The notes beneath the pieces were generated by a model. It had not been told where the DNA came from and did not search any database. It worked only from the letters and a program-made list of their open reading frames with translations. A stretch of DNA of 64,000 nt from the NCBI GenBank assembly GCA_965222155.1, contig CBDCTH010000012.1:2464001-2528000 (forward strand), given 5' to 3'. This document shows positions 11,796 to 28,150 of this stretch, in pieces. Source of the stretch: Gammaproteobacteria bacterium. Its GTDB lineage: Bacteria > Pseudomonadota > Gammaproteobacteria > Eutrophobiales > Eutrophobiaceae. Every line of letters starts with the position of its first letter. Positions within the stretch are counted from its first letter, which is position 1. Position numbers and translations under genes: made by a program.

Positions 11796-12626
11796 TCATT
11801 TGTCAGCTATCTCCCTTTCTGAAGGCTGCCGGTCCTGCCGGAGCATGATCCAGCCTGCTATGAGTACGCCGGCGCTGACGATGCTGATGATAATGGTCGC
11901 CAATGCGTTAATATCCGGCGTCACGCCGAGGCGGACTTTGGAGAATATCCACATGGGCAGGGTGCTGGCTCCCGGGCCGGATACGAAACTGGCGATCACC
12001 AGGTCATCCAAGGACAGGGTAAAAGCCAGTAACCAGCCGGACAACATGGCCGGGGCGATGATGGGCAAGGTGATATCCAGCGTAACCCGGAATGGCCGCC
12101 CGCCCAGATCCATGGCTGCCTCCTCCAGGGACTCATCCATCGACATCAATCTTGATTGCACAATCACGGCGACGTAGGCCATGGAAAAGGTGATATGGCT
12201 GATGGTAATGGTCGTGACGCCCCGTTCCCCGGGCCAGCCGATGAAATCCTGCAAGCTGACGAACAGGAGCAACAGCGACAGACCGGTAATCACTTCCGGC
12301 ATGACCAGCGGCGCGGCGATCATCCCGGTAAATAAAACCCTGCCGCGGAAGCGCCTGATACGCGCCAGGGCAAGACCGGCCAGGACGCCCAGCGCCGTTG
12401 CCACCGTGGCGCTGACGAAGGCAATCCGCAGGCTGAGCAGCGCGGCCTCGATGATCTGCCTGTTCTCCAGCAGCGCCGCATACCAGCGCAGGGAAAAGCC
12501 GCCCCATACCGAAACGATGCGGGAATCGTTGAACGAGTAAACCATGACCATGATGATCGGTATATAAAGAAACGCATAGCCGAAGCAGAGCATGGTAATC
12601 AGGAACGTGGAGCGTTGTCCGTTCAT
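11796..12626 (-). CDS. potI: Polyamine ABC transporter permease (PotI/PotC)
   Basis: EEAAMDLG EAA loop; FTLSLDD motif. Confidence 0.88.
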   Translation of the reverse strand: MNGQRSTFLITMLCFGYAFLYIPIIMVMVYSFNDSRIVSVWGGFSLRWYAALLENRQIIEAALLSLRIAFVSATVATALGVLAGLALARIRRFRGRVLFTGMIAAPLVMPEVITGLSLLLLFVSLQDFIGWPGERGVTTITISHITFSMAYVAVIVQSRLMSMDESLEEAAMDLGGRPFRVTLDITLPIIAPAMLSGWLLAFTLSLDDLVIASFVSGPGASTLPMWIFSKVRLGVTPDINALATIIISIVSAGVLIAGWIMLRQDRQPSEREIADK

Positions 12627-13528
12627 GCTTCGCCCTGTGCTCCACGCGCCTGGTAATGCTGAAATACCATGATGGGCGCAACCAGGATGAGTAACAGGAT
12701 AATGGCGACTGCCGAAGACAACGGCCAGTCGCGATTGGTGAAAAATTCATCATACAGGGTTCGGCCTATCATGAGCGAGTCGAGCCCGCCCAGTAATGCA
12801 GGGATGACGAATTCTCCCAACGCCGGAATGAACACCAGCAGACTGCCGGCGATGATCCCGGGCAGGGAGAGGGGTAGGGTGATATCACGGAAGACCTGCA
12901 GTGGCCTGGCGCCGAGATCGGATGCTGCCTCGTTCAGGTTGAAATCCAGTCTCTCCAGGTTGGCGTACAGCGGCAGGATCATGAAGGGCAGGTAGGAATA
13001 GACAATTCCGAGGTAAACCGCAAAATCCGTATATAACAGCTTCAGCGGCTGCTCGATGAGGCCGATGGAGAGCAGCAGGTTGTTTATCAGGCCATTCGTG
13101 CTCAACATGCCCATCCAGGCATATACCCGCAATAGAAATGAAGTCCAGAACGGCAGGATCACCAGGAATAAGAGGATGTTGCGCCGGACCGGAGCGGCCC
13201 GGGCGATGGCGTATGCCATCGGATATCCGATGAGCAAACACAGTAAGGTGGAGATAAAGGCGACCCTGATTGATTTCAGGTAGCTGATCCAGTACAGGTC
13301 GTCCTCCAGCAGAAACCGGTAATTATCCAGCGTGATATGGAACCAGCGCCCCCCCTCTTTGCTGAAATCAAACAACGACGTAAAAGGCGGCAGGGCGACG
13401 ATGGGGTCTGCGAAACTGATCTTGAGAACGAACAGGAACGGCAGCAGAAAAAATACCGAAAGCCACAGGTAGGGCATGCCGATCACAAACCGGCGCCACA
13501 AGTTGTCCATGCCTTTTCCCGGGATCAT
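12623..13528 (-). CDS. potH: Polyamine ABC transporter permease (PotH/PotB)
   Basis: LPFWTSFLLRVYAW; EAASDLGA; ATGA overlaps at both ends. Confidence 0.88.
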   Translation of the reverse strand: MIPGKGMDNLWRRFVIGMPYLWLSVFFLLPFLFVLKISFADPIVALPPFTSLFDFSKEGGRWFHITLDNYRFLLEDDLYWISYLKSIRVAFISTLLCLLIGYPMAYAIARAAPVRRNILLFLVILPFWTSFLLRVYAWMGMLSTNGLINNLLLSIGLIEQPLKLLYTDFAVYLGIVYSYLPFMILPLYANLERLDFNLNEAASDLGARPLQVFRDITLPLSLPGIIAGSLLVFIPALGEFVIPALLGGLDSLMIGRTLYDEFFTNRDWPLSSAVAIILLLILVAPIMVFQHYQARGAQGEA

Positions 13529-14706
13529 TCGATTAGCACCACGCTGCTCTGAATATCCCAGGAAAGGTAAACGACGTCGTCCCATTCAAGAGTTCGTTCA
13601 GCTGAACGAACCCGGTTCTGGGTACTGACCTGTACGACCATTCCCGCGTCGGTCTTTATGCGGTAGATGGATAAATTACCGTAATACCCCAGGTCCCAGA
13701 CCACACCCCTGAGGGCAGCCGCGGCATCAGGTTCGGGCGGCTCCTTGGTGATCGAGATTTTTTCAGGTCTTACGGCAAGGGTTAGTGGCGCGGCCAGGCT
13801 TATTTGTTCAGCCGATCGTGCCCTGATGGCGGCATTCACTCCTTCACATTCCACCTTGACGGTCTCGCCGTCAATCCGGCTGACTGTTCCCTCGAACAGG
13901 TTGATAGTGCCGAAAAAATCAGCGACGTAGCGGTTCACCGGATATTCATAGATCTCTTTGGGCGTTCCGCATTGGATGAACCGACCTTCGTGCATGACCA
14001 CGATGCGGGTTGACAAGGTCATGGCTTCCTCCTGGTCGTGGGTCACGATGATAAATGTCACGCCAGTCTGGTCCTGGATATCCATCAACTCAAATTGAGT
14101 GTGTTCGCGTAATTTCTTGTCCAGCGCCGCCAGCGGTTCATCGAGTAGCAGGACTTTGGGGCGTTTAACCAGCGCCCGAGCCAGGGCAATGCGTTGCCGC
14201 TGTCCGCCGGATAACTGCCTGGGTTTGCGTCGGGCAAACTCCGTCAGTTGCACCAATTCGAGCATATCCGCCACCCGGGTCCGGATTTCATTTTTCGGCA
14301 TACCTTCTTTTTTCAGGCCGTAGGCAACATTTTTCTCGACGGTCAGATGGGGAAAGATGGCATAGGACTGGAACATCATGTTGACCGGACGCTGGTATGG
14401 AGGAACCTCGGTCATATCAACACCATCGATCAGGATCCTGCCCGAGGACGGTCGTTCAAATCCGGCCAGCATGCGCAGCAAGGTGGTCTTGCCACAACCG
14501 GAACCGCCCAGGATGGAAAACAATTCCCCTTTATATATATCGAGGTTTACGTTGCGGACAGCCATAAACCCGTCGAAATCTTTCGAGACGTTTTCGATTT
14601 GAATGAACGGTATCGCGTCCGGGTCCAACCAGGCCGGTTTAGACCCGGGATTAGCACTACCGACATCTCTCACCAAGTGATTGGAATTCTTAATCGGATG
14701 TTCCAT
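13525..14706 (-). CDS. potG: Polyamine ABC transporter ATP-binding protein (PotG/PotA)
   Basis: GGSGCGKT, LSGGQ, LLLDEP, THDQEEA; C-terminal TOBE-like region. Confidence 0.9.
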   Translation of the reverse strand: MEHPIKNSNHLVRDVGSANPGSKPAWLDPDAIPFIQIENVSKDFDGFMAVRNVNLDIYKGELFSILGGSGCGKTTLLRMLAGFERPSSGRILIDGVDMTEVPPYQRPVNMMFQSYAIFPHLTVEKNVAYGLKKEGMPKNEIRTRVADMLELVQLTEFARRKPRQLSGGQRQRIALARALVKRPKVLLLDEPLAALDKKLREHTQFELMDIQDQTGVTFIIVTHDQEEAMTLSTRIVVMHEGRFIQCGTPKEIYEYPVNRYVADFFGTINLFEGTVSRIDGETVKVECEGVNAAIRARSAEQISLAAPLTLAVRPEKISITKEPPEPDAAAALRGVVWDLGYYGNLSIYRIKTDAGMVVQVSTQNRVRSAERTLEWDDVVYLSWDIQSSVVLIE

Positions 14707-14733
14707 TTGATTTGGGCCGCAGTTCTTTATAAG

Positions 14734-14844: not shown

Positions 14845-14858
14845 CTAAAAAGGGTTTT

Positions 14859-15965
14859 TCAGAGGCCGGATTTTATGCGCGTCCAGGTTCGGGATCGGTT
14901 TCTCTCCATCTTGGGTGAATAGACCAGGGAGAGCTCCAGGCGTTTGCGCACATCGGCGTCGGGATAGATGGCCGGGTCTCCGGTAATATCCGGATCAACC
15001 AGAACGGTAGCGGAGCGATTGGCATTGGCGTAACCGATGTAGTCGGAAGCAGGCGCAATCACTTCCGGCCGCAGGAGATAGTTCATCAGGATATAAGCGT
15101 TATCCGGATGTGGGGCGTCACTGGGAATAAACATGCTGTCAACCCAGGCGGGGATCCCTTTCTCCGGCATGACATAAGCCAGGTTGATGTCGACCCCGGC
15201 CTCCGCGGCGCGGGTGCGGGCAACGATATAGTCCCCGGACCAGCTCATGGCCACGCAGATTTCCTTATTCGGCATGTCGATCAACATTTTTGCGGAACTG
15301 AAATAACGGATATAGGGACGAATGGATTTCATCACGCGTTCCACGTCGCGCAGGTGGTGCGACTCAATGGAGTTGCCGGGATAGCCCAGGTAACTCATGA
15401 CTATGGGTAGCGTGTCAATGGGGCCGTCCAGTACGGTAATGCCGCAATCGGCAAAACGCGAGATGATCTCAGGCCTGAAAAAGAAATCGGCCGTATCCAG
15501 CGGCGCATCCGGGAAGCGTTCCCTGAGCATGTCTACATTATAGGAAATACCCGTCGTTCCCCACATATAGGGGACGCCATGGCGATTGCCCGGGTCAATA
15601 TCTGCCATAATTTGCACAATGTCCGGGTCCAGGTGTTTCCAGTTTTCAAGGCGGCTGCGATCCAGGGGTTGGTAGGCCCCGGCTTCAATAAGGCGGGCTG
15701 AATAAGAGGCAGCATGTACAACAACGTCATAACCGGTACTGCCGGTCATCAGTTTGGCATCCGCCATCTCCGTGGTGTCATAGATATCGTAATTGACCTT
15801 GATGCCGAATTCCCGTTCAAAATCAGCAAGGGTAGTCGGACCGATATAATCCGCCCAGTTGTACATATTGACAATTTTCTCTTCAGCCGACGCTACACCG
15901 GGAAACCCTGAGAACGCCAGCAGGCCGACGATCGTTCCGGTAATACCCGGGCTAAGTTTTATCAT
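14859..15965 (-). CDS. potF: Polyamine ABC transporter substrate-binding protein (PotF-like)
   Basis: Signal peptide; YNWADYI, TGYDVV, PYMWGTTGI, WSGD, RTWTRIKSG. Confidence 0.88.
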   Translation of the reverse strand: MIKLSPGITGTIVGLLAFSGFPGVASAEEKIVNMYNWADYIGPTTLADFEREFGIKVNYDIYDTTEMADAKLMTGSTGYDVVVHAASYSARLIEAGAYQPLDRSRLENWKHLDPDIVQIMADIDPGNRHGVPYMWGTTGISYNVDMLRERFPDAPLDTADFFFRPEIISRFADCGITVLDGPIDTLPIVMSYLGYPGNSIESHHLRDVERVMKSIRPYIRYFSSAKMLIDMPNKEICVAMSWSGDYIVARTRAAEAGVDINLAYVMPEKGIPAWVDSMFIPSDAPHPDNAYILMNYLLRPEVIAPASDYIGYANANRSATVLVDPDITGDPAIYPDADVRKRLELSLVYSPKMERNRSRTWTRIKSGL

Positions 15966-15980: not shown

Positions 15981-17135
15981 TTACATCGCTTCCAGGCCGC
16001 GTTTGAGCAGGCGGCCGGCTACGATCAGGCGCTGGATTTCACTGGGGCCTTCCCAGATGCGATCCACGCGCAGTTCCCGGAAGAATCTTTCCGCGGCATT
16101 CTCCCGCATGTAACCGCGCCCGCCGAATATCTGCATGGCGCGATCCGCGACCCGGTTGGCCATCTCGGAGGCATACAGCTTGGCCATGGAGCAACGGGTA
16201 TGGAGCGAGCTCAGATTTACACCCCGATCATGGGCCTGGGTCGCTTCGAAAGTCATCAATCGCGCTGCCCAGAGTTCCGTGGCGCTGTCGGCAAGCATGA
16301 ACTTGATTGCCTGTTTGTCCGCCAGCATTTCCTCGTGGATGCGCCTGTTTTTGGCGAATTCCGTTGCTTCCTCAATCAGGCGCGCAGCCGCTCCGCAACA
16401 GCGCGCTGCGATCATCATGCGCTCATGACGAAACCAGCTACGGGTATAATCCATCCCCTCTCCGGCTGCGCCGATCCGGTTCCGCGCAGGCACGAAAACG
16501 TTGTGGAAACGAAAAGTAGGATGATGCGCGGCGTAGGTATGGCTGAATCGGGGGTTGTCTGTCATTTCGATTCCGGCGCTGTCGATATCCACGAAAAATA
16601 ATGCCTGTTCCCCATCATCCAGCCGGGCCTGCAGAATAAAATAATCCGCATGGTTGGCGCTGGTTACGTACCACTTTTCACCGTTGATCAGGTAACCATC
16701 GGCGCACCGGGCAGCCACGGTCTCGATCACCTCCCAGGAGCCGGATTCGGCCTCGGTAATGGCGTAGCACTCGCCGCGGGAACCATCCACCAGGGGTAGT
16801 ATATAAGTGTTGATCTGGTCCTCGTCACAGGCCGCGAACATCCACTGCTGCGCCTCGGAAAAGCACCAGCATAAGGCATTAGTCACACGCCCCAGTTGTT
16901 CCCATACCGCAACCTGCTCGGTCATACCAAGCTCCAGCCCACCATAACGCTTGGGAACATCCATCCTGCTGAAGCCGAGTTCAACGGCTAGTTGCCTGTG
17001 GCGTGCATGAACTTCCGCAGGTATAACGCCATTGTTGAATTCCGCTTCCAGTTCCCAGGGTTGTAATTCTTGCTCGGCAAACGCACGGGCCTTTGCTTGC
17101 CATTCCAGCGTATTGCTGTCCAGTGATATTTCCAT
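15981..17135 (-). CDS. Acyl-CoA dehydrogenase family protein
   Basis: YAITE.ESGS, INGEKWYVT, QIFGGRGY, RIWEGPSEIQR. Confidence 0.9.
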   Translation of the reverse strand: MEISLDSNTLEWQAKARAFAEQELQPWELEAEFNNGVIPAEVHARHRQLAVELGFSRMDVPKRYGGLELGMTEQVAVWEQLGRVTNALCWCFSEAQQWMFAACDEDQINTYILPLVDGSRGECYAITEAESGSWEVIETVAARCADGYLINGEKWYVTSANHADYFILQARLDDGEQALFFVDIDSAGIEMTDNPRFSHTYAAHHPTFRFHNVFVPARNRIGAAGEGMDYTRSWFRHERMMIAARCCGAAARLIEEATEFAKNRRIHEEMLADKQAIKFMLADSATELWAARLMTFEATQAHDRGVNLSSLHTRCSMAKLYASEMANRVADRAMQIFGGRGYMRENAAERFFRELRVDRIWEGPSEIQRLIVAGRLLKRGLEAM

Positions 17136-17142: not shown

Positions 17143-17799
17143 TTATTCCGGACCAGGGAAAGAGTGAAAATAGGCGGGAAGGGCAGTATGCAGGTAGTTC
17201 ATTACCAAAGCCCTTGCTTGAGTACCATTGATTTCTTTTGGCGTCAGCAACATATCCAGCCACAGGCCGTCGATAATAGCATCCAGTGTCGTCGCCAGAA
17301 TTTGCGGATCATGCTGTTTATTCTCATCGTCGCGCAGCATTTCGGCAAACAGGTCAGCTTCCACCTTCACATAATGTCGGTCATATTCCGCACAAGTCTT
17401 CATATAAATCGGACGTGAACGGGTTTCCCCCCAAAATGCGAACCATACCGCCAGTTTCTTGCGGTCGCAGATCGTTTTACTGAAGTCCAGTTCCACCAGC
17501 GCGGCAAGTTTGTCAGCCGGCGCCGGACCCGATTTTTCCAGCGTTTTTTCCCAATGGTGACGGTATTCTTCGGCCAGGTACTTGAGTGTCTCCAGCAGCA
17601 GTTTCTCTTTGCTCTTGAAGTGCAGGTTGACGATACCCAGGCTTAACCCCGCTTCCCTGGTGATGTCTGCCATGGTCGTCGCCGAAAAACCGCGTTTGGC
17701 AACACAGTTGATGGTCGCCTTGATGAGTTGCTCGCGGCGACGTTGTTTTGCCAGGGTCCTGCTGTCAGGGACGCTTCCGGTTTCTCTAGCCTGCATCAC
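17143..17799 (-). CDS. TetR-family regulator, BetI-like
   Basis: RREQLIKATINCVAKRG…AGLSLGIVNLHFKSKE; W.AFW and AIIDGLWL in the C-terminal domain. Confidence 0.88.
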   Translation of the reverse strand: MMQARETGSVPDSRTLAKQRRREQLIKATINCVAKRGFSATTMADITREAGLSLGIVNLHFKSKEKLLLETLKYLAEEYRHHWEKTLEKSGPAPADKLAALVELDFSKTICDRKKLAVWFAFWGETRSRPIYMKTCAEYDRHYVKVEADLFAEMLRDDENKQHDPQILATTLDAIIDGLWLDMLLTPKEINGTQARALVMNYLHTALPAYFHSFPGPE

Positions 17800-17804
17800 T
17801 CCCC

Positions 17805-17987
17805 GTTAGTCATTCCGCTCTCTGTTCGTCATTCCACCCCCTGTTCATCATTCCGCCCCCTGTTCGTCATTCCACCCCCTGTTCGTCATTCCGCCCCCTG
17901 TTCGTCATTCCACCCCCTGTTCGTCATTCCGCCCCCTGTTCGTCATTCCGCCCCTTGTTCGTCATTCCGCCCCCTGTTCGTCATTCC
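17805..17987. repeat. 19-bp tandem repeat (9 full units) derived from a REP end
   Basis: Unit GTTCGTCATTCC(G/A)CCCCCT starting at 17805, 17824 … 17957; the tenth start runs into the REP. Confidence 0.92.
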
Positions 17988-18092
17988 GGCGAATGCCGGA
18001 ATCCAGTGAATAAAGAGTCGCCTCCAGCGACATATTATAATGACTGGATGCCGGGTCAAGCCCGGCATGACGAACAGCCCGGCATGACGAAC
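17979..18092. repeat. Inverted REP pair
   Basis: CGTCATTCCGGCGAATGCCGGAATCCAGT and ACTGGATGCCGGGTCAAGCCCGGCATGACG, the latter with a duplicated outer end. Confidence 0.8.
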
Positions 18093-18103
18093 GGAGGGTA
18101 ACA

Positions 18104-19294
18104 TTATTTCATGGCGTGCAGGTACCAGTCGATAAAGCTGCGCGTGAAGCTCTCCATGCCGGTATAAGAGCCGGGGCGGTAAAATGTTGAATTGATGCCT
18201 TTCTGATTGTTCTCGATGATGCGCTTGTCGGCAATCGTGGTGATATCCCAGAGCCAGGTCAGGTCGTCGCGGTCATAATCTGTTCCTTCCTGCGCCGACT
18301 CGTTGACCAGCCAGGTGATATCGCACACGCTCTCGGTCACGTTTAACGGCCGGAAGTGGTAGATGACGACGTGATCGCAATAAGCCAGACAGAATGTAAA
18401 CGGCCCAACCTGTATATCGGTCGCGCCGCCGTCATAGCCGCTGATGTCGCCCAGTAGCGGCGCCACCGGTTTGCCGTCCCGGCTACCCGTGACAAATCCG
18501 TTGAACAGGGGGTACCTGTCAAAGCCGCGATCGGTACCGACGGCGCCGGCGTCCAGCCAGCTTTTATCGACACACCGTCCGTTCAGACCCAGCTTCTCTC
18601 CCCTGGCGATTACCTGCTGCAGCAGGTCAGCCACTTCCTCATCAGGCAGTGACCGGCCGTGTCCTTGGGCGTATTCAGGGTGGGCTGGCGTGCAGTGGTA
18701 ACATTCACAATAATTCTCCACCGCGAGTTTCCAGTTTGCCCGGATGGGGTAGCTTTGCCGGTGCGCGACCTTCGCCTTATCCAGCTTATAGGGTTGCAGG
18801 CATTCATCCAGGTCGCGCCGGATGGGATCGAAGGAAGCGGGCCGCTCGGCAAAATTGATGAAGATCATGCCGTGAAGGATCTCCAACCGCACCTGTCCCA
18901 GCGCATAGTCCGAACGATCGAAATCCGGCGATGTGTAGTTGGCGCCCCGTAATGCGCCGTCCAACTGGTAAGTCCAGCCGTGGTAGGGGCATACCAGCAG
19001 TTTCTGCCTGCCGCTGGATTCCATGCAGATGCGCGAACCGCGATGTCGGCACAGGTTCAGCAATGCTTTTACCGTATTCTCGCCGGAGCGAATAATGATC
19101 ACGGATTCATTGCCCAGTTCGTACAGGAAATAATCGCCGGTTTCGGGAATCAGGCTGAGGTGCCCGGCATACAGCCAGGACTTCATGAAAAGCCGGTCCA
19201 GCTCACGCCGGTAGATGTCGCTATCCCGGTAGAAATCCTGCTGCAGGGAAAAGCCTTCAGGCTGGTTGTCAATCAGTTGAGATATTGCTGCCAT
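18104..19294 (-). CDS. Rieske non-heme iron oxygenase alpha subunit (GbcA/Stc2-like N-demethylase group)
   Basis: CRH…CPYH Rieske motif; NWK…EN..ECYHC..AHP iron site. Confidence 0.88.
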   Translation of the reverse strand: MAAISQLIDNQPEGFSLQQDFYRDSDIYRRELDRLFMKSWLYAGHLSLIPETGDYFLYELGNESVIIIRSGENTVKALLNLCRHRGSRICMESSGRQKLLVCPYHGWTYQLDGALRGANYTSPDFDRSDYALGQVRLEILHGMIFINFAERPASFDPIRRDLDECLQPYKLDKAKVAHRQSYPIRANWKLAVENYCECYHCTPAHPEYAQGHGRSLPDEEVADLLQQVIARGEKLGLNGRCVDKSWLDAGAVGTDRGFDRYPLFNGFVTGSRDGKPVAPLLGDISGYDGGATDIQVGPFTFCLAYCDHVVIYHFRPLNVTESVCDITWLVNESAQEGTDYDRDDLTWLWDITTIADKRIIENNQKGINSTFYRPGSYTGMESFTRSFIDWYLHAMK

Positions 19295-19299
19295 ACTCA

Positions 19300-21559: not shown

Positions 21560-21801
21560 TCAATTTTTACCCGGCTTTCATCAATCTCGAACATATCCGG
21601 ACGTTCGGCTAGAAAGTCGTCGCCGACCGGTTTGCTTTCATCGTTCAACGTCAGCCAGGACTTACGCATCGGCTCCAGGATCAGCTTTTGTCCCACCTTC
21701 TGCACGGTTAGCTCGGTCACGCCCTCATAAGCAAAGTCCTTCGGGATGCGGACTGCCTGACTTCGGCCATTCTTGAATATCTTTGCGGTATGCATGATCA
21801 C
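21556..21801 (-). CDS. vapB: AbrB/MazE-type VapB antitoxin
   Basis: AKIFKNGRSQAVRIPKDF. Confidence 0.9.
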   Translation of the reverse strand: MIMHTAKIFKNGRSQAVRIPKDFAYEGVTELTVQKVGQKLILEPMRKSWLTLNDESKPVGDDFLAERPDMFEIDESRVKIE

Positions 21802-21908: not shown

Positions 21909-23093
21909 TCAGCAATCCGCCGGGGTCTTGCGCCGCCGCGCCGGATCAAAAAATGCGCCTACCACCAGCTTGCAGCGGGCCATCAGACGCTTCCACTGTA
22001 ATTCGCTATTGTAATAGACCTCGGCATATAATTCATCGCCGGGCCTGCCCCAGGGCATCTCCATTGAGGCCAGGGCGATATTCATCTTGGCACTCGGTGA
22101 CCAGACCGCGGATGTGACGTGCCCGACGACTTTCTGTTTGCGGTTGTAGATGAACGCTTCGTTCGCAGGTTTGTTTCCTTCAACGTCCAGCCGGACCAGG
22201 CGATAGCGCGACCCCCTTTCCTGTTCTTCCAGCAGGGCTTTTCTGCCGTTGAACACCGGCTTGTCAAAATGCACCAGCCGGCCGAGACCCAGTTCAAACG
22301 GGGAACGGCCCCGGTCCGGACGCACCACGTCCACGGCAGGCACGAACTCCACTCCCGCCTGGATAAACCCGGCCTCGATCCTGGCCATATCCAGGGCCTG
22401 GTTGCCGATGGGCAGAATACCATGGGGTTTACCGGCCGCGAACAGGGCATCCCACAATCTTTCCGCGTAGGCCGGTTCGACCCACAACTCATAACCCAGA
22501 TCGCCGGTAAAGCCGGTGCGCGACACCAGAAGTTCCGTATCGTCAAAAGGGAAGCGCTGTAATTCAAACGGTTTCAGGTGCTCAATATCCGCCAGGCCCA
22601 TGGCTTTCAGGGTGCGGCAGGAAGTGGGTCCCTGTACGGCCAGGGCGGCTATCTCGTCCGATTCATCGCTGATGTCAACGTCAAAGCCCGTTGCCGTAGC
22701 CAGCAGCCAGTCCAGGTGGCGTTCCTGCGAGCACAGGCGCCAGTGATGTTCGCCCAGCTGAAAGACCGTCCCGTCATCCAGTACGTGTCCCCTGTCATTG
22801 CACCAGGCCGCGTACATGACGCGCTCCGGGGCCAGCTTATCCATCCTGCGCGTCATCAGCTTGTCCAGGTAAGCCGAACCTTCCTTACCGGTGATTCGGT
22901 ACTTGGTCATGGGACTCAGGTCGAACACCGAGGTGGCGTTGCGAATGGCGAAATATTCATCTTCCAGGGTGGTGTAACAATCAACGACGGTATATGCCTT
23001 CCAGGATGACCAGAGATTGGTCTCGCACACAGCCGAGGTGCGCGCATGGAACGGCGTGGGTAATACGCGCTTCTGTGTTTCCCTAACCCGCAT
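21909..23093 (-). CDS. Aminomethyltransferase (GcvT-like, THF-binding) family protein
   Basis: FDLSPM, G.VLDDG, AVQGP, SRTGFTGDLGYE, RIEAG, GHVTS. Confidence 0.9.
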   Translation of the reverse strand: MRVRETQKRVLPTPFHARTSAVCETNLWSSWKAYTVVDCYTTLEDEYFAIRNATSVFDLSPMTKYRITGKEGSAYLDKLMTRRMDKLAPERVMYAAWCNDRGHVLDDGTVFQLGEHHWRLCSQERHLDWLLATATGFDVDISDESDEIAALAVQGPTSCRTLKAMGLADIEHLKPFELQRFPFDDTELLVSRTGFTGDLGYELWVEPAYAERLWDALFAAGKPHGILPIGNQALDMARIEAGFIQAGVEFVPAVDVVRPDRGRSPFELGLGRLVHFDKPVFNGRKALLEEQERGSRYRLVRLDVEGNKPANEAFIYNRKQKVVGHVTSAVWSPSAKMNIALASMEMPWGRPGDELYAEVYYNSELQWKRLMARCKLVVGAFFDPARRRKTPADC

Positions 23094-23447
23094 TTCTCAG
23101 ATCGCTAGTTGCTATCGGATACATGATTGCTGTCAATGAGTTATGATAATTTGTTGACGATATTATCATTACAGAGTGCGCTTGATGCGTCCTCACTTGT
23201 CTTTTTTGCGCCAACGGGCACGTGTTCATTGCGCCCATCCCCCTGCTCAACTCCATACAGGGGCAGGCTCTGGGCGCAACCCTGCGGGCGGCTGTCGCCG
23301 TGCAAATCGTCAGGACTGACGATTTGCCCCTCAACCAGAGCTACGGCTATGCCTTCGGTCCCCGTATCAAGTACGGGGCAGGCTCCGGCGCCCGTTGGCG
23401 CAAAAAATCCTGTGTGATCTTCGCATCATCTGGTGAGAAATCCGGGT
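23086..23447. mobile_element. MITE copy B (362 bp)
   Basis: Ends ACCCGCATTTCTCA / TGAGAAATCCGGGT with TA on both sides. Confidence 0.85.
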
Positions 23448-23453
23448 TATCCG

Positions 23454-25028
23454 TCACAAGGGTTTCTCCTGCTTCAGTATTTCATTTGCGGCGTTACGGC
23501 CGGGCAGCCCCATCACGCCGCCGCCCGGATGGCAACCGGCGCCACACAGGTATAAGCCGGCTACCGGCGTTGCATAATGAGCGGTGCCGGGGACCGGGCG
23601 CAACATCATGAATTGATCCATGCTGTATTCGCCGTGATGCCAGTGACCGCCATGGATGTTGAATTCTCTTTCCAGGTCGGGCGGGGTCAGCAATTCAGCG
23701 GCAATAACCTGCGTGCTGATGCCGGGTGCATACTCTTCCAGTCGCTTGACAAGCAACTGCTTGAAGTCATTCCTTCCAGAGTCCCACCCTGAGCGAAGCT
23801 CGAAGGGTGCGTACTGAACTATGGCCGACAGTACATGTTTGCCTGCCGGCGCCAGGCCGTTGTCATGAATGGACGGGATATTGATCTCCATCACGGGTTG
23901 TGCCGAAAACCTGCCGTACTTGGAGTCATCAAACGCATGTTCGATATGATTTAACGAAGGAGCGATCAACAGGCGCTGACCCGATTCTGCGGTTGTCAAT
24001 CCGCTGAATTCCGGTAACCCATCCAGGGCCAGGTGCAGTTTTGCCACCTTGCCCTGCATGCGGATGTTGTCGATACGCCTGGCAAAACCGGTCTCAATGT
24101 TCCTCGCGCCGACCAGTTGCAGGAAGGTGGTTTTGGGGTCGGCGTTGGAGACGACCAGCCTGCTGTCGATGCGTTCCCCGGCTGCCGTTTCAACGCCGGT
24201 CACCCGGTCCCGGTCCAGCAATATCCGGCTGACCGGCGTTGCCGTCCTGATTTCCGCTCCTGCCGCTTCTGCGGCGTTGCGCAACGCGCCGGTGACGGAT
24301 CCCATCCCTCCCGCCACTACCGAGACCCCGCTGTCATTGGCGTGTAAGCGGCCGGTCAACCGGTACAGGTAAGTCAATACCGAGCCGGGCGACCGGGGTC
24401 CCAGGTTAGCGCCGAGCAGGGCGTCTATGCCGAGGGCGCCTTTCAGCCGTTCATCGGCAAAGGTTTCCTGCAGCACATCGTAGATATTGATGGCGCCCGT
24501 CCGCATCAATTCCCGCATGAGGTCCCGGCCCAGCAGGCGTATATTCAAGCCCAGCCCAGCCAGGCGCGCCAATTCCCTGATGCTGTTATTGCCCACACGG
24601 GGCGGACGACTTGTGAACGTTTTTTGCAGTATGCCGGCAAAGCGCCGGTATTTGTGCAGGAACAAGGGGTAAGCGGCGCGATCACTTTCGGAGATCCCGG
24701 CACCGTCTACATGATCACCGTCCAGGGTAAGATGATTGCCATCTGCCGAAAGCGCGATCGTGTTTAAATCGGAGGCCGCCAGGTTAAGTCCGTGCCCATC
24801 CAATCCCAGGTCCGAGACGATGTCCGGTGAAAACAGGCAGAGCAAGTGCGCTCCGGCGGAGACTGAAAAACCAGGGGCAAATTCCCGAGTGATCGCAGCG
24901 CCGCCTACCTGTTCATTCGCTTCGAGCACCAGTACCGAGCGACCTGCGCGGGCCAGATATGCAGCGCAAACCAAACCATTGTTGCCGGCCCCGATAATGA
25001 TATTGTCGAAACTGTCTGTCATCATCAA
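23454..25028 (-). CDS. Phytoene dehydrogenase-like (PYROXD2-like) FAD oxidoreductase
   Basis: IIGAGNNGL FAD motif; GGMG; LYLCGAGCHPGGGVMG.PG.NAA. Confidence 0.88.
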   Translation of the reverse strand: MMMTDSFDNIIIGAGNNGLVCAAYLARAGRSVLVLEANEQVGGAAITREFAPGFSVSAGAHLLCLFSPDIVSDLGLDGHGLNLAASDLNTIALSADGNHLTLDGDHVDGAGISESDRAAYPLFLHKYRRFAGILQKTFTSRPPRVGNNSIRELARLAGLGLNIRLLGRDLMRELMRTGAINIYDVLQETFADERLKGALGIDALLGANLGPRSPGSVLTYLYRLTGRLHANDSGVSVVAGGMGSVTGALRNAAEAAGAEIRTATPVSRILLDRDRVTGVETAAGERIDSRLVVSNADPKTTFLQLVGARNIETGFARRIDNIRMQGKVAKLHLALDGLPEFSGLTTAESGQRLLIAPSLNHIEHAFDDSKYGRFSAQPVMEINIPSIHDNGLAPAGKHVLSAIVQYAPFELRSGWDSGRNDFKQLLVKRLEEYAPGISTQVIAAELLTPPDLEREFNIHGGHWHHGEYSMDQFMMLRPVPGTAHYATPVAGLYLCGAGCHPGGGVMGLPGRNAANEILKQEKPL

Positions 25029-25094: not shown

Positions 25095-26711
25095 CTAATC
25101 ATCGGTGAATGTTTCCGGTACGATATTTTTACGACCCAGGTCCCGTAATATTTCCCTTGCTGAGTTTGCACCCGGCGCGCCCATCACGCCCCCGCCCGGG
25201 TGTGTGCCGGAACTGCACATATACATACCTTTTACGGGTCCCCGGTACTGGGCATAACCAGGGAAAGGCCGGTTGAACAGCAGTTGGTCCATGGTTAATT
25301 CGCCCTGGAAAATATTGCCCTCGGTGAGACCAACCTCGTGTTCCAGTTCCCGCGGTGTACGGACTTCTGCATGCAGGATCAGGTCCTTGAAATCGGGACT
25401 GTATTCCGCAATCTGGTCAATCACGGTCTGGCCGAACTGGTCCCGTTGCTCATCCGTCCAATCCCGGCCGTTCACTTTCGGCGGGCAGTACTGGACGAAT
25501 ACGCTCATCATCTGCTTGCCGGGTGGCGCCATGGTCGGGTCCACCAGGGTGGGGATCAAGGTGTCCAGGTAAGGGTCTTTTGACCAGGTGCCGTTCTTCC
25601 AGTCATCGTAAGCCTTTTCCATGCGTTCCAGTGAATCAATGAAATGAAAATCAGCTTTCAGCAACTCATGGCCCCTGGGCACGGCGTGAAACGTGGGCAT
25701 GCCGTCCAGTGAGATGTTGAGTTTTCCGGAAGAGCCGCGGATCTTGAAGTTTTGCGCCTTGCTGACCACATCCCGGGGCAGGTCCCGCTCATCCATGATG
25801 TTCAGAAAGGTGCGTTTCGGGTCAAGATTGGAAATAACGATGTCCGCGTAATATTCGTCGCCGTTTTCCAGGACGACACCCTTTGCACGCCTTTCTTTGA
25901 CCAGGATTTTATCAACCCCGGCGTCAACCTTGATCTCTCCGCCGAATCCCTCAAATGCGCCGGCCAGGGCATTGGCAATGGCGCCCATACCACCCCGGGC
26001 AAACCCCCATGAACCGATACTGCCATCCACGTCGCCCATGTAATGATGCAACAGGACATAGGCCGTCCCCGGAGAATATACCCCCAGTGCGGTGCCGATG
26101 ATACCGCTGCCGGCCAGGTGCGCCTTGACAATATCCGATTCAAAATATTCATCAAGAAAATCAGCGATGCTCATGGTCCAGAAGCGGATGGTGTCACACA
26201 GGAGTTCCTCGCCCAGTTCCCAGTAGGATTTTATGAAATGAATCAACTCCATCAGGTCGCGCGGTTTGAACGACGTTGGGTCCGGCGGGGTCCTCATCAG
26301 CAGCGGCCGTATCAGCCGGGTCTGGCGCATCACGTCGGCTTCATAGCGCTGGTATGCGTCGGCGTCACGCCGGGAATGCCTGGCCATCTCCCGATATTGG
26401 CGCTCCTTGTCGCCATAATTACCATAGTAATCCCCATTGCGCATAAAGGTGATGCCGCCTTCATAAGGAATGATTTGCAGGCCGTGGCGGGCCAGTTCCA
26501 GGTCGCGATAAATCTCCGGACGGAACAGGCTGCACACATAGGAACAGTTCGAATAAGTCCAGCCCGGATACAGGGACCGGCTGACGGACGCACCTCCAAT
26601 CCAGGGATTTTTTTCTACAACAAGCACATCCAGGCCCGCCTTGGCAAGAAAGGCGGCATTGGTCAGGCCATTATGGCCGGCGCCAATCACGATAGCGTCG
26701 TATTTCTTCAC
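25095..26711 (-). CDS. Phytoene dehydrogenase-like (PYROXD2-like) FAD oxidoreductase
   Basis: VIGAGHNGL; PGTAYVLLHH; GNIFQGEL; THPGGGVMGAPG. Confidence 0.88.
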   Translation of the reverse strand: MKKYDAIVIGAGHNGLTNAAFLAKAGLDVLVVEKNPWIGGASVSRSLYPGWTYSNCSYVCSLFRPEIYRDLELARHGLQIIPYEGGITFMRNGDYYGNYGDKERQYREMARHSRRDADAYQRYEADVMRQTRLIRPLLMRTPPDPTSFKPRDLMELIHFIKSYWELGEELLCDTIRFWTMSIADFLDEYFESDIVKAHLAGSGIIGTALGVYSPGTAYVLLHHYMGDVDGSIGSWGFARGGMGAIANALAGAFEGFGGEIKVDAGVDKILVKERRAKGVVLENGDEYYADIVISNLDPKRTFLNIMDERDLPRDVVSKAQNFKIRGSSGKLNISLDGMPTFHAVPRGHELLKADFHFIDSLERMEKAYDDWKNGTWSKDPYLDTLIPTLVDPTMAPPGKQMMSVFVQYCPPKVNGRDWTDEQRDQFGQTVIDQIAEYSPDFKDLILHAEVRTPRELEHEVGLTEGNIFQGELTMDQLLFNRPFPGYAQYRGPVKGMYMCSSGTHPGGGVMGAPGANSAREILRDLGRKNIVPETFTDD

Positions 26712-26735
26712 GATTCCTGCTCTCCGCGTTTTATC

Positions 26736-28067
26736 TTATACAAGGTTGCCGTTTCTGCCATGTTGTTGTTCCAGCGTCGTGTCGACCGCCTGTTCGAACC
26801 TTGTAACGGTTTCTGCAACACAGTCTTCATCATGGGCTTCAGAGAGAAACCAGGGCTCCCGTGAATCCGGCTCAACCAGCACACCCACGTCATGCAGGTT
26901 CGGTGCCAGGTTATCGTAAAAGGTATAGTCGGAATGCACCCAAGCGCGGTAGTCGGCAGGCGCATCGGCGTTGAAAAACAATCCTGACATGGCGGGATGG
27001 CCGACAAAAGAACAGGGGATGCCGCGCCGGGACAATACCTCACCGACACCTTCCCGCAGCTTTTCGCCGTGCCTGGCGATGGATGCCAGTGCTTCCGTTT
27101 CATCCAGGATTTCCAGTGTCTTGTCGGCGGCAGCCAATGAGACCGAGTGGCCGCTGTAAGTGCCACCGTGGACCACCCTGTCGCCAATGATGCGCATGAT
27201 GTCCTCCCTGCCGGCCAGGGCGGAAATCGGGTAACCGTTGGCTATCGCTTTTGCATAGGTACACAGGTCGGCATTCACCCCCAGCAATTCCTGTACCCCT
27301 CCCCTGGCTACGCGAAAACCGGTTTTGACCTCGTCAATGATGAGTATCACATTGTAGTGGTTGCATAACTCGCGCACGTCCCTGAGATATTGACCCGTCG
27401 CGGTGATGGAGCAGCAATTCCCCATCATGGGCTCGATCAGGAAGGCGCCTATTTTATCGGCGCGGCATTGAAACAGACTCTCGATCCGGTTGGCGTCATT
27501 CATGGGAACACTGTGTATCAATTGGCGATACAGGCCCGGTACGCCTTCGCCGTAAGGCAGCAATTCCGGATCCTCTCCGTTTTCCTGCCAGTCTTCGACT
27601 TCGGAGTACCAGAGGACTTCGCTGAATACGCCGTGGTACCCCCCCTCCACCATCACGTACTCATCCTTGCCGGTATAGGCGCGGGCCAGCCTCAAGGCAG
27701 CCATCACCGCTTCCGTACCGGTTACGGAAAATCGTACCAGTTCGGCAGAGGGCACCATATTGGAAATCCGCTCAGCCACCCGATACTCAAGCTCCGTCGC
27801 AAGCGCAAACACCCCGCCGACATCCATACCGTTGCGGACGGCTTCGTCAACCCGCGCATCGGCATAACCGAGAATAGCGGGTCCGAAGCCCAGGCGATAA
27901 TCGATATACTCGTTGCCGTCAATATCCCACAGACGAGCGCCTTTCCCTTTCTGGATGTAAATCGTCCCGTCATCGCCCCAATAGCGAAAATTGGACGTCA
28001 CACCCAGGGGCAGGCGTTTCAATGCCTTTTTGAAATGAGCAGCAGAATTTTCACGGCTGCGCAACAT
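26736..28067 (-). CDS. Class III PLP aminotransferase (GSA-aminomutase-like)
   Basis: DIDGNEYID, GTEA, YHG, IEP, DEVKTGFR, AKAIANG, HGGTY; GAGG RBS before ATG 28067. Confidence 0.88.
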   Translation of the reverse strand: MLRSRENSAAHFKKALKRLPLGVTSNFRYWGDDGTIYIQKGKGARLWDIDGNEYIDYRLGFGPAILGYADARVDEAVRNGMDVGGVFALATELEYRVAERISNMVPSAELVRFSVTGTEAVMAALRLARAYTGKDEYVMVEGGYHGVFSEVLWYSEVEDWQENGEDPELLPYGEGVPGLYRQLIHSVPMNDANRIESLFQCRADKIGAFLIEPMMGNCCSITATGQYLRDVRELCNHYNVILIIDEVKTGFRVARGGVQELLGVNADLCTYAKAIANGYPISALAGREDIMRIIGDRVVHGGTYSGHSVSLAAADKTLEILDETEALASIARHGEKLREGVGEVLSRRGIPCSFVGHPAMSGLFFNADAPADYRAWVHSDYTFYDNLAPNLHDVGVLVEPDSREPWFLSEAHDEDCVAETVTRFEQAVDTTLEQQHGRNGNLV

Positions 28068-28130
28068 AACTACCTCATCTTGTAACAAGGCATCACATCA
28101 TGCCACAGCCATCCTGTCCTGTCCATAATA

Positions 28131-28150
28131 TTGAATGAGTATTCATTCAA
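28131..28150. promoter_or_regulatory. Palindromic operator, BetI-box-like
   Basis: TTGAATGA-GTAT-TCATTCAA, about 64 bp upstream of the first gene of the cluster. Confidence 0.6.

Follow-up and report, generated by a model that had tools for sequence, protein, structure and literature searches.

The 64,000-nucleotide stretch of gammaproteobacterial DNA analysed here (the window) carries a widely conserved gene cluster that probably encodes a three-protein N-demethylase undescribed so far. Its core is a trio of genes for two flavoproteins, Flav1 and Flav2, and a GcvT-like protein, of which no description was found in the literature searched. At about even odds (roughly 0.5), we read the locus as a catabolic island under repressor control that serves the breakdown of a polyamine-type amine with N-methyl groups, the trio being its heteromeric demethylase. 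Gene content, conservation, coupling and homology are established here, and the contact between Flav2 and GcvT is supported by a structure model.

Gene content and insertions in the window strain

Every gene of the cluster lies on the minus strand between positions 11796 and 28088, and all are intact:

11796..12626, minus strand: PotI-like ABC permease (Pfam BPD_transp_1; NCBIfam PotI, 348 bits versus a cut-off of 476)
12623..13585, minus strand: PotH-like ABC permease (Pfam BPD_transp_1; NCBIfam PotH, 410 bits versus a cut-off of 489)
13525..14706, minus strand: PotG/PotA-like ABC ATPase (ABC_tran and TOBE_2; TIGR01187 polyamine ATPase subfamily passed, 409 bits versus a cut-off of 355.6)
14859..15965, minus strand: PotF-like periplasmic binding protein (E. 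coli PotF 1a99, E 6.9e-103)
15981..17135, minus strand: acyl-CoA dehydrogenase (four Acyl-CoA_dh domains; no NCBIfam equivalog reached)
17143..17799, minus strand: BetI-type TetR regulator (TetR_N and TetR_C_6; NF001978 BetI passed, 125.8 bits versus a cut-off of 118; TIGR03384 missed, 126 versus 201.3 bits)
17800..18103, no strand: intergenic copy or pieces of an interspersed repeat (177 blastn matches in its own genome)
18104..19294, minus strand: GbcA/Stc2-type Rieske oxygenase (Rieske and Ring_hydroxyl_A; GbcA, 319 bits versus a cut-off of 670; match to the stachydrine demethylase Stc2, 3vca, at E 5.8e-73)
19295..19684, no strand: intergenic copy of an interspersed repeat (204 blastn matches in its own genome, 8 covering at least 70%)
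19685..21079, minus strand: PuuA-like ligase of the glutamine synthetase fold (Gln-synt_C; gamma-glutamylputrescine synthetase model, 214.6 bits versus a cut-off of 650)
21125..21801, minus strand: toxin-antitoxin pair of VapC (21125-21559; PIN domain, VapC models) and a VapB-like protein (21556-21801; 81-codon upstream ORF)
21909..23093, minus strand: stand-alone GcvT-like folate-binding protein (GCV_T and GCV_T_C)
23094..23453, no strand: repeat insertion separating GcvT from Flav2 (360 bases; 230 blastn matches in its own genome, 16 covering at least 70%)
23454..25028, minus strand: Flav2, a divergent flavoprotein of the PYROXD2/CrtI fold (Amino_oxidase and NAD_binding_8; 36% identity to oyster PYROXD2)
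25095..26711, minus strand: Flav1, a highly conserved PYROXD2-like flavoprotein (Amino_oxidase; 38% identity to oyster PYROXD2, full length)
26736..28088, minus strand: class III aminotransferase of the HemL-like branch, HemL/GntE-like (Aminotran_3; GntE, 450 bits versus a cut-off of 525; HemL, 331 versus 527 bits)

Each gene named in the initial annotation was found on this strand and intact, while the VapBC module and the three intergenic repeat copies had been overlooked. The solved relatives of the aminotransferase include aldehyde and amine transaminases. A Pfam scan of the 59 window ORFs (15 and 44) returned no gene for carotenoids or haem, nor one for the P or H protein of glycine cleavage, in agreement with the initial annotation. 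PuuB, PuuC and PuuD were likewise absent from the window, and no reductase partner for the Rieske oxygenase was found in the cluster.

The 360 bases between Flav2 and GcvT (23094-23453) are a copy of a repeat that is interspersed genome-wide; an 18-base perfect inverted repeat lies within them. The GTG that overlaps the Flav2 stop codon is a vestigial start, opening an ORF of just 36 codons, and an ATGA overlap joins the Flav2 stop to the GcvT start in three relatives of the same genus. Both observations bear out the earlier proposal that GcvT was originally coupled to Flav2 through a GTGA overlap. At the second repeat region (19295-19684), relatives carry merely 5-90 bases. VapBC is missing from its position in all eight same-genus loci and, judged from sequence, is an insertion into the operon between the ligase and GcvT. 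Together, the repeats and the toxin-antitoxin pair interrupt operon coupling in the window strain.

It could be argued that, whichever role it had ancestrally, the island of this strain is falling into decay and has ceased to function as a unit. Besides the four insertions (three intergenic repeats and VapBC inside the operon), the Flav2-GcvT overlap is gone, a gap of more than 100 bases being found in only 2 of 49 other loci; the CoA ligase is encoded about 770 kb away, compared with inside the cluster in two relatives; and a consensus scan found no promoter-like site upstream of GcvT. However, each of the 13 pathway ORFs has its full length, interrupted by neither a stop nor a frameshift, and is 65-94% identical to its counterparts in relatives, and the same repeats are scattered across the whole genome. 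We consider decay very unlikely.

Conservation and predicted assembly of the trio

The initial annotation had proposed that the two flavoproteins and GcvT form one unit, with conserved synteny and multimer structure prediction as checks. Relatives of Flav1 are encoded in at least 585 stretches of species-representative genomes. Of the 66 foreign loci (Gamma-, Alpha- and Betaproteobacteria) with at least 2.9 kb of sequence downstream of Flav1, 63 had the whole trio, and the remaining three still had GcvT. Within the genus, the gene order of the window recurred in 8/8 loci, each with the trio. Because of this recurrence among same-genus and foreign loci, the arrangement is far beyond chance. The cluster is accessory within the genus, as only 9 of the 22 other genomes from it carry orthologues with at least 83% identity. 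Start and stop codons overlapped between Flav1 and Flav2 in 38 of 49 loci and between Flav2 and GcvT in 33 of 49. Two apparent Flav2-GcvT fusion proteins (P0121 and P0123) were rejected as support for a fusion, being frameshift artefacts. The synteny and the overlaps, together with the structure model described below, support the proposal of a single unit.

Flav1 and Flav2 are paralogues with 35% identity, and Flav1 is 63-91% identical across the classes sampled. Over their full length, the two proteins share 38% and 36% identity, respectively, with oyster PYROXD2. The motifs SPG..YVLLHH.MG and GLT.GNIF.G are common to Flav1 and PYROXD2, and both are altered in Flav2; from sequence, Flav1 is presumed to be the catalytic subunit. 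In published reports, human PYROXD2 variants account for about 50% of N6-methyllysine variance and are associated with trimethylamine and dimethylamine, and PYROXD2 is linked to N6-mono-, di- and trimethyl-lysine and N-methylpipecolate. The link to PYROXD2 drawn in the initial annotation is borne out by the oyster identities, and the associations that it cited are published.

The Flav1 model has a CrtD/CrtI-like fold (TM 0.74/0.81 to 4rep); after CrtD and CrtI, it resembles putrescine oxidase, monoamine oxidases and nicotine oxidoreductase (TM 0.55-0.61). The CrtO, CrtI and CrtD matches, the best by family and fold, would suit CrtI-like enzymes that desaturate, saturate or isomerize C-C bonds in an isoprenoid, lipid or acyl chain, beside unrelated amine genes. 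Yet the two flavoproteins score far below the family cut-offs (CrtO, 296 and 256 bits versus 1000; crtI_fam, 114 and 134 bits versus 238), and the window has no crt genes; the initial annotation was thus right, by context and score, to discount a carotenoid role. The amine, folate and ABC context is also constant across three proteobacterial classes, and the model supports binding of a flavoprotein to the folate protein. A CrtI-like function is highly improbable.

In GcvT, Y94, D107 and E202 correspond in the alignment to Y83, D96 and E195 of the Thermotoga maritima T-protein, so that the catalytic Asp and Glu are kept, whereas T-protein R227 is Leu in the window GcvT, as it is in TMAO demethylase. 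The best solved relative is the C-terminal, tetrahydrofolate (THF)-binding domain of TMAO demethylase (9q59, E 8.7e-48). When Flav2 and GcvT were modeled as a pair, the score was 0.81 versus 0.00 for the best of three controls; among reference pairs, 58 of 80 solved complexes and 2 of 110 mismatched ones came up to this mark, a rough calibration here because self-built alignments were used. At least 93% of contacts agreed between runs, partner pLDDT was at least 89, and the predicted interface on Flav2 comprised residues 273-274, 303, 307-317 and 488. No solved complex of the two families was found in sequence searches of the PDB. The model supports docking of GcvT on Flav2.

Substrate and proposed route

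A TetR homologue adjoined the trio in 57 of 80 loci, a class III aminotransferase of any kind was nearby in 53, a PotG-like ATPase in 48 and a Rieske oxygenase of any kind in 38. In Alphaproteobacteria, the transaminase and the binding protein are swapped for non-orthologous members of the same classes. Further genes of a methylated-amine or polyamine kind around the trio encode StcD/DgcA-sized NADH:flavin oxidoreductases, GNAT and HDAC-like proteins, in one locus (L077) a PurU-like formyl-THF deformylase and in another (L050) carnitine dehydrogenase with gamma-butyrobetaine-type CoA enzymes. The TetR regulator, Pot importer, aminotransferase and Stc2/GbcA-like Rieske oxygenase point to an N-methylated polyamine-type amine as the likely substrate. 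Of the 80 loci, only 11 had the PuuA-like ligase together with the trio and 19 an acyl-CoA dehydrogenase orthologue (at least 50% identity); glutamylation and CoA oxidation are therefore optional branches and, PuuB, PuuC and PuuD also being absent from the window, not the regular steps that the initial annotation had made them.

The window PotF, which has no second homologue in the genome at E<1e-20, keeps all acidic and aromatic ligand residues of E. coli PotF (W37, D39, Y40, W244, D247, D278 and Y314), with the changes S38A, S85A, F88Y, E185D and F276W. Its best PDB matches are engineered PotF variants that also have Trp 276 and Tyr 88. Among 20 cluster-linked PotFs, Trp 276 occurs in all, and D39, D247 and D278 are intact in 19 or 20. 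In SpuE, a preference for spermidine goes with Trp at this site. The shared Trp 276 and the two Ser-to-Ala changes of the window protein count in favour of the main reading. The kept ligand residues and the lack of a second homologue at that threshold, however, speak against a dedicated uptake system, and the PotF substrate may be ordinary putrescine or spermidine.

We infer the substrate and all chemical steps of the following route. PotFGHI would import the amine, and the BetI-type TetR would sense it or a breakdown product. The Rieske oxygenase would take one methyl group off a quaternary or tertiary nitrogen, and the heteromeric Flav1/Flav2/GcvT enzyme would strip the remaining ones: Flav1, as the PYROXD2-like FAD subunit, would oxidize N-CH3 to the iminium, Flav2, the diverged paralogue, would hold GcvT as the third subunit, and GcvT would capture the one-carbon unit on THF as 5,10-methylene-THF. 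The trio would be a variant of the folate-linked flavoprotein N-demethylases, with a stand-alone GcvT and two flavoproteins. The HemL-like transaminase would convert the primary amine to an aldehyde. In the optional branches, the PuuA-like ligase would gamma-glutamylate a free amino group, and the acyl-CoA dehydrogenase would act on the amino acid so produced, as a CoA ester made with an ADP-forming CoA ligase encoded elsewhere in the genome.

The same enzyme logic, a Rieske oxygenase with a folate-linked flavoprotein demethylase, could serve a methylated amino acid or betaine, such as N6-methylated lysines, gamma-butyrobetaine, 4-methylaminobutyrate or beta-alanine betaine, the transaminase then acting on the amino group uncovered through demethylation. 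The published reports tying PYROXD2 to methylated lysines and N-methylpipecolate fit such a substrate, as do a regulator that passes one BetI model and a Rieske oxygenase closest to the proline-betaine demethylase Stc2. At one locus (L050), the trio adjoins carnitine dehydrogenase (630 bits versus a cut-off of 592) and gamma-butyrobetaine-type CoA genes (BKACE, ACAD, ADP-forming CoA ligase and ECH), a set that corresponds to the Sinorhizobium route for gamma-butyrobetaine; among 89 loci, the trio has an ADP-forming CoA ligase gene as neighbour in 17, an ALDH gene in 9 and an ECH gene in 5. However, carnitine genes are found next to the trio at no more than one or two loci, the window ACAD is just 33% identical to that of L050, and the gammaproteobacterial importer is a true PotF relative (E 1e-103) whose D39, D247 and D278 pocket fits two cationic ends and would repel a carboxylate. 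We regard this substrate class as unlikely.

Less likely still, Flav1 and Flav2 might together make up a C-N oxidase or dehydrogenase of ordinary spermidine-like polyamines, with GcvT only trapping formaldehyde from the Rieske reaction or having another folate-linked role. Both flavoproteins match Pfam Amino_oxidase, the amine oxidases follow CrtD/CrtI among the fold matches of Flav1, PotF has the Trp 276 and Tyr 88 of the engineered variants, the GNAT, HDAC-like and PuuA-like genes nearby are polyamine-type, and a stand-alone GcvT-family protein serves dimethylamine monooxygenase. But GcvT tracks the flavoproteins (63/66 loci) and not the Rieske oxygenase (38/80), it is start/stop-coupled to Flav2 and predicted to bind it, and secondary-amine cleavage gives no one-carbon unit for folate.

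Flav1, the core subunit of the candidate three-protein N-demethylase, is a relative of human PYROXD2, an enzyme that is still unexplained.

Gene content of the island and its interruptions

ORF calls and domain scans placed 13 intact pathway genes on the minus strand of the window between 11796 and 28088. The features of the island are as follows.

11796-28088, minus strand: PotI, PotH, PotG, PotF, acyl-CoA dehydrogenase (ACAD, 15981-17135), BetI-type TetR regulator, Rieske oxygenase, glutamine-synthetase-fold ligase (PuuA-like, 19685-21079), GcvT-like protein (21909-23093), flavoprotein Flav2 (23454-25028), flavoprotein Flav1 (25095-26711) and class III aminotransferase (AT3, 26736-28088)
21125-21801: VapC/VapB-like pair between the ligase and GcvT genes, inserted in the catabolic operon
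23094-23453: interspersed repeat copy, 230 matches in its own genome, 16 of them nearly full length
19295-19684: interspersed repeat copy, 204 matches in its own genome
17800-18103: interspersed repeat copy, 177 matches in its own genome

Every gene named in the initial annotation was found on the minus strand, and its inventory left out the VapC/VapB-like pair and the three intergenic repeat copies. Flav1 and Flav2 are paralogues with 35% identity. Pfam scans of the 44 further window ORFs detected ATP synthase, several PIN/VapB modules, transposase genes and housekeeping genes, with no carotenoid, haem or glycine-cleavage P/H genes, as the initial annotation had stated.

The repeat is about 350 bases long, has more than 200 full or partial copies genome-wide and contains an 18-base perfect inverted repeat (23202-23219 and 23390-23407). 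It occupies three intergenic gaps of the operon and breaks no ORF. The copy at 23094-23453 accounts for the earlier remark that the GcvT gene was originally coupled to the Flav2 gene through a GTGA overlap. The GTG overlapping the Flav2 stop now starts an ORF of just 36 codons, and GcvT coding picks up right after the insert. Three same-genus relatives have the start of GcvT and the stop of Flav2 overlapping as ATGA, so that the remark was correct. A promoter scan found no consensus promoter ahead of GcvT within the inserted repeat, a result that is weak either way.

At least three more VapB or PIN-domain ORFs (9890-10165, 30887-31300 and 46642-47058) lie in the same 64 kb, making the region unusually rich in toxin-antitoxin modules. 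The window also contains an ORF with a Mu-transposase C domain (56861-58402) and an IstB-like fragment (60432-60755). L109, a second locus of the same genome, has at 14579-16120 an ORF that matches the former in length, Pfam domain and E-value (3.2e-22), indicating that the IS element is probably multicopy. Two large secreted-type proteins flank the region, one of 1032 residues with eight fibronectin-III stretches (2637-5735) and one of 896 residues with RTX repeats (33463-36153). Divergent from AT3, there is a plus-strand ORF (28135-29355) without a Pfam or NCBIfam match, in which a lipoprotein signal (LSGC lipobox) follows an internal start, and it is kept at the same position, with 72-83% identity, in four same-genus loci.

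Conservation and neighbours of the trio

Among 22 other genomes of the genus, 9 encode a Flav1 orthologue with at least 83% identity. The order AT3-Flav1-Flav2-GcvT-ligase-Rieske was kept in all eight same-genus loci fetched; TetR and PotFGHI follow in four of them and ACAD in three. None of the eight has VapBC at the corresponding position, and in two an ADP-forming acyl-CoA ligase occupies that spot.

Across species-representative genomes we found at least 589 matched stretches, of which at least 585, from marine and soil bacteria, encode a Flav1 relative. The best 80 of these loci, on which the following comparisons rest, come from Gammaproteobacteria (Woeseiaceae, Steroidobacteraceae, Halieaceae, Porticoccaceae and Pseudohongiella), Alphaproteobacteria (Mesorhizobium, Rhizobium, Shinella, Kiloniella, Rhodobacteraceae and Puniceispirillales) and one Burkholderiaceae MAG. 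Completeness was scored on the 66 loci with at least 2.9 kb downstream of Flav1. The trio of Flav1, Flav2 and GcvT was complete with normal spacing in 63 of them, while the remaining three (L064, L075 and L082) kept GcvT and had a displaced or missing Flav2 match. Together with the same-genus order, this is the outcome of the co-occurrence check that the initial annotation had suggested. In 49 complete loci, start and stop codons overlap between Flav1 and Flav2 in 38 and between Flav2 and GcvT in 33. Only two of the 49 have a Flav2-GcvT gap of more than 100 bases, which makes the 360-base gap of the window an outlier. Current annotations call the trio genes "phytoene dehydrogenase-like", "FAD-dependent" or "NAD(P)/FAD-dependent oxidoreductase" and "aminomethyltransferase".

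Beside the trio we found a TetR homologue in 57 of the 80 loci, a class III aminotransferase in 53 (orthologous, at 50% identity or more, in 25), a PotG-like ATPase in 48, a Rieske oxygenase in 38, a PotF of at least 40% identity in 27, ACAD in 19 and the ligase in 11. Clustering of all ORFs in 89 loci gave further recurrent neighbours: a second Rieske family (19/89), an ADP-forming acyl-CoA ligase (17/89), a PuuC/BADH-like aldehyde dehydrogenase (9/89), enoyl-CoA hydratase (5/89), a DAO-family oxidase, a small Asp/Asn-hydroxylase-like protein and TetR-GNAT fusions. Pot-type import combined with N-demethylation and transamination is the constant element of these loci, and glutamylation and CoA chemistry are optional additions. 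Of the linear route first proposed for the island, the import, Rieske and transaminase genes recur, and the ligase and ACAD would be optional branches. In the window genome, an orthologue of the CoA ligase (83% identical to that of locus L014) is encoded at a distance of about 770 kb, next to parAB.

Alphaproteobacteria have other members of the same classes in place of the binding protein and the transaminase, the latter being a PRK07036-type omega-transaminase. On annotated plasmids of Parasedimentitalea and Shinella, the trio adjoins more Rieske genes and a 680-residue NADH:flavin oxidoreductase, presumably of the size and family of StcD and DgcA; the Parasedimentitalea plasmid also carries a GNAT, an HDAC-family protein and a BKACE enzyme nearby. 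Five loci (L070, L084, L041, L045 and L085) have the trio without its usual partners, among unrelated housekeeping or signalling genes. Exceptions among such partner-poor loci are L077, where a PurU-like formyl-THF deformylase adjoins the trio, and L035, a Pseudohongiella MAG, in which a DDAH/amidinotransferase-fold protein and an amino-acid permease (6752-9017) lie just upstream of TetR and the trio. The latter pair hints at methylated arginine-type substrates in some lineages.

Distant paralogues of the flavoproteins (L019-L025) occur in mixed contexts, some without amine genes. One single distant paralogue adjoins a transaminase, a CoA ligase, an enoyl-CoA hydratase, a TonB receptor and a Rieske-like match. 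Loci L019 (G003:C1:683000-702999) and L020 have a tandem PYROXD2-like paralogue pair, 36-37% identical to Flav1, at 5 kb from a 454-residue GcvT-family gene and a TonB receptor, and the GcvT-family pairing may therefore extend to other PYROXD2 branches.

The flavoproteins, the folate protein and their predicted pairing

Flav1 and Flav2 both retain the GxGxxG motif and the C-terminal FAD motif. Their matches to DAO (PF01266) are partial, covering residues 5-111 of Flav1 and separate stretches of Flav2 (best 129-305), and a full-length DAO catalytic flavin domain was found in neither protein. A search of 1.84 billion cluster representatives returned 2162 Flav1 relatives at E 1e-30 or better, and the best 150 include clusters named PYROXD2 from oyster and mayfly and a choanoflagellate protein. 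PYROXD2 is an orphan mitochondrial flavoprotein of animals, and we know of no partner protein for it. In comparisons with the oyster and mayfly sequences, Flav1 was 38% identical to oyster PYROXD2 (P0357) over residues 4-527 (BLASTP, E 9e-124) and 37% identical to the mayfly protein, while Flav2 was 36% identical to the oyster protein over its full length (BLASTP, E 1e-96).

The motifs SPG..YVLLHH.MG and GLT.GNIF.G are common to Flav1 and PYROXD2, and their cores, YVLLHH.MG and GNIF, are invariant among Flav1 orthologues; Flav2 differs at both. Identity to foreign loci is 63-77% for Flav1 and 32-58% for Flav2. Since Flav1 is far better conserved, we take it as the probable catalytic subunit and Flav2 as its putative diverged partner.

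The GcvT-like protein carries both T-protein domains (Pfam GCV_T and GCV_T_C). In a PDB sequence search its best solved relative was the THF-binding C-terminal domain of the TMAO demethylase Tdm (9q59, E 8.7e-48); true T-proteins came next, then DmdA, dimethylglycine dehydrogenases and SoxA. Residues Y94, D107 and E202 align with Y83, D96 and E195 of Thermotoga maritima T-protein (1woo) and are invariant in an alignment of 46 GcvT sequences. We take the aspartate of T-protein to be catalytic and its glutamate and tyrosine to contact folate. R227 of T-protein is replaced by leucine, the same as in Tdm. A search for longer GcvT relatives returned two flavoprotein-GcvT chains (P0121 and P0123) and one GcvT-CoA-ligase chain (P0122), each a single sequence. 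The first two have an out-of-frame stretch mid-protein, and P0122 has such stretches after the GcvT part and at the C-terminal end. All three most likely arose from frameshift errors at 4-base gene overlaps and were rejected as support for fusion. In the window genome, the flavoprotein and the folate module are separate chains.

Multimer prediction, which the initial annotation had also suggested, gave the Flav2-GcvT pair a score of 0.81 (runs 0.82, 0.78 and 0.81) with a 46-row alignment per chain, and the best of three controls scored 0.00. Of 80 solved complexes, 58 reached the 0.81 mark, as did 2 of 110 mismatched pairs, a rough calibration since the Flav2-GcvT runs used alignments of our own. 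The runs agreed in at least 93% of contacts, and partner pLDDT was at least 89. The predicted interface joins Flav2 residues 273-274, 303, 307-317 and 488 to GcvT residues 74-78, 99-100, 129-137 and 278-285, and it takes in GcvT residues a few positions before the invariant D106-D107. PDB sequence searches found no solved complex of the two families, so the high score is unlikely to reflect a known structure. The model supports the view that Flav2 may bind GcvT.

The proposed pathway, its rivals and its meaning

The data partly support the reading of the island as a folate-linked flavoprotein demethylase of unfamiliar build, set in a methylated-amine or polyamine catabolic island. PotFGHI would import the amine under the control of the BetI-type TetR. 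The Rieske oxygenase, whose nearest relative is the proline-betaine demethylase Stc2, would take the first methyl off a quaternary or tertiary nitrogen. Flav1, Flav2 and GcvT would remove further methyls and transfer the one-carbon unit to THF, in the manner of dimethylglycine and sarcosine dehydrogenases, and the primary amine would then be transaminated by AT3. Where they are encoded, the PuuA-like ligase may protect the free amine, and aldehyde dehydrogenase, CoA ligase, ACAD and hydratase may process the resulting amino acid. All the chemistry of this pathway is what we infer. Of the three-part THF-dependent demethylase first proposed for these genes, the trio as a unit and the predicted Flav2-GcvT binding stand, and the remainder belongs to that inferred chemistry.

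The importer was compared with Escherichia coli PotF (E 6.9e-103). With the putrescine contacts taken from the literature, 7 of 11 residues are kept (W37, D39, Y40, W244, D247, D278 and Y314), while E185 is replaced by Asp, both S38 and S85 by Ala and F276 by Trp; Tyr also stands in place of F88. Trp at 276 is present in all 20 cluster-linked PotFs, and the acidic and aromatic residues are nearly invariant. The best PDB matches are engineered PotF variants with Trp 276 and Tyr 88, changes that presumably shift preference towards spermidine. The retained and changed residues suggest a pocket suited to a ligand that is cationic at both ends and may be longer or bulkier than putrescine, and the loss of two hydrogen-bonding serines with a gained aromatic would fit a methylated nitrogen. 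Since the window PotF is the only homologue in its genome at E<1e-20, it may also serve general polyamine uptake.

The NCBIfam equivalog cut-offs were missed by PotF (366 vs 636), PotG (472 vs 613), PotH (410 vs 489) and PotI (348 vs 476), while the polyamine ATPase subfamily TIGR01187 was reached (409 vs 355.6). The Rieske protein has both its Rieske and catalytic domains, scored 319 bits vs 670 for GbcA and matched Stc2 (3vca) over its full length (E 5.8e-73); no reductase gene for it was found in the cluster. The TetR passed NF001978 (BetI; 125.8 vs 118 bits) but not TIGR03384 (126 vs 201.3). AT3 fell below the HemL and GntE cut-offs; aldehyde and amine transaminases are among its relatives. 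The ligase scored 214.6 bits vs 650 for PuuA, and PuuB, PuuC and PuuD were not found in the cluster. A second polyamine-type cluster (L109, G000:C12:2612000-2630000) lies about 90 kb from the window, with a TonB-dependent receptor, a GS-fold ligase, a class III transaminase, a tungsten-type aldehyde:ferredoxin oxidoreductase and a DAO-family oxidase.

Like DMGDH, DMGO, SARDH and 4-methylaminobutyrate oxidase, the trio would pair a flavoprotein with a GcvT-type folate module (solved relatives of the window GcvT from this group, 4p9s and 1pj5, E 1e-20 to 1e-24), and the expected chemistry would be the same, from N-CH3 through an iminium to methylene-THF. However, those enzymes have a DAO-family flavin domain and GcvT in one chain, whereas the trio consists of two separate PYROXD2/CrtI-fold flavoproteins and a free GcvT. 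SoxBDAG and N-methylglutamate dehydrogenase, as we understand them, combine one catalytic flavoprotein with a second Rossmann-type subunit bearing the folate domain. SoxA is related to the window GcvT (2gag, E 4e-19), and the predicted Flav2-GcvT pairing would resemble a split SoxA, but the flavoprotein families are unrelated, the trio has no delta or gamma subunits and its GcvT is a separate gene. In Tdm the catalytic domain is DUF1989, with no flavoprotein. The GbcAB-DgcAB-SoxBDAG and Stc2/StcD routes resemble the island in their Rieske oxygenase and BetI-type regulator, and the island differs in its Pot-type importer, regular transaminase and trio as proposed later demethylase. With Puu/Pau/Spu and PotFGHI the island shares PotFGHI relatives (PotF, E 1e-103), a PuuA-like ligase and a class III transaminase, but it misses all equivalog cut-offs and has the ligase only as an occasional partner. 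A GcvT-family protein that stands alone in methylamine breakdown has a precedent in DmmD, although DmmABC is unrelated to Flav1 or Flav2; in a 2026 preprint, an aminomethyltransferase-family protein is listed alongside dmmA and dmmC for dimethylamine breakdown.

We give a probability of roughly 0.4 to the reading that the trio is a new class of heteromeric THF-dependent N-demethylase with a PYROXD2-family catalytic subunit, that human PYROXD2 would then be an oxidative demethylase of N-methyl-lysine-type or alkyl-methylamines, and that the module would be a main marine and soil route to folate-bound one-carbon units from methylated compounds of the polyamine type, for example pieces of the long-chain methylated polyamines in diatom silica. 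The same enzyme logic may instead serve methyl-lysines or gamma-butyrobetaine-type betaines, which we consider unlikely. At locus L050, from Peteryoungia, the neighbours of the trio are a carnitine dehydrogenase (630 bits, above cut-off), a BKACE enzyme and an ACAD/CoA ligase/hydratase set, presumably a gamma-butyrobetaine and carnitine route; the PotF pocket, which would fit two cationic ends and disfavour a carboxylate, speaks against this alternative. Substrates considered were N-methylputrescine, trimethylated diamines, methylated aminopropyl polyamines, methyl-lysines, gamma-butyrobetaine and beta-alanine betaine, with none singled out. An ordinary polyamine oxidase, in which GcvT would trap formaldehyde, appears improbable. 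In its favour, the Flav1 model is after CrtD nearest to putrescine oxidase, monoamine oxidases and nicotine oxidoreductase; against it, the pairing predicted for GcvT is with Flav2.

It is highly improbable that Flav1 and Flav2 are CrtI-like desaturases. The PDB sequence search with Flav1 returned CrtI only (1e-16), and its model (pLDDT 83, pTM 0.87) has the CrtI-type fold (CrtD 4rep, TM 0.74/0.81). On the other hand, scores were far below cut-off for CrtO (Flav1 296 and Flav2 256 bits vs 1000) and TIGR02734 (114 and 134 bits vs 238), and no carotenoid biosynthesis genes were found in the 59 window ORFs or the neighbour families of the 89 loci. We also give very little credence to decay of the window strain's copy, which is peppered with repeats and a toxin-antitoxin pair and has its pathway ORFs intact.

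For the demethylase reading, the link to PYROXD2 drawn in the initial annotation was upheld by the full-length homology of Flav1 and Flav2 and by associations in print. One report associates PYROXD2 variants with urinary trimethylamine and plasma dimethylamine (PMC3169529). Another associates them with N6-methyl-, dimethyl- and trimethyl-lysine, N-methylpipecolate and N-acetyl-isoputreanine and has them account for about half of plasma N6-methyllysine variance (PMC8109053). We found no account of the trio or of bacterial methylated-polyamine breakdown in the literature covered, which takes in few subscription journals. If the reading is true, the trio would be a new way of building a folate-linked demethylase and a hitherto unrecognised methylated-amine sink and source of one-carbon units. 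It would also give a concrete, testable reaction for the orphan human PYROXD2, and the bacterial operon brings its own transporter and repressor, which are usable for substrate finding.
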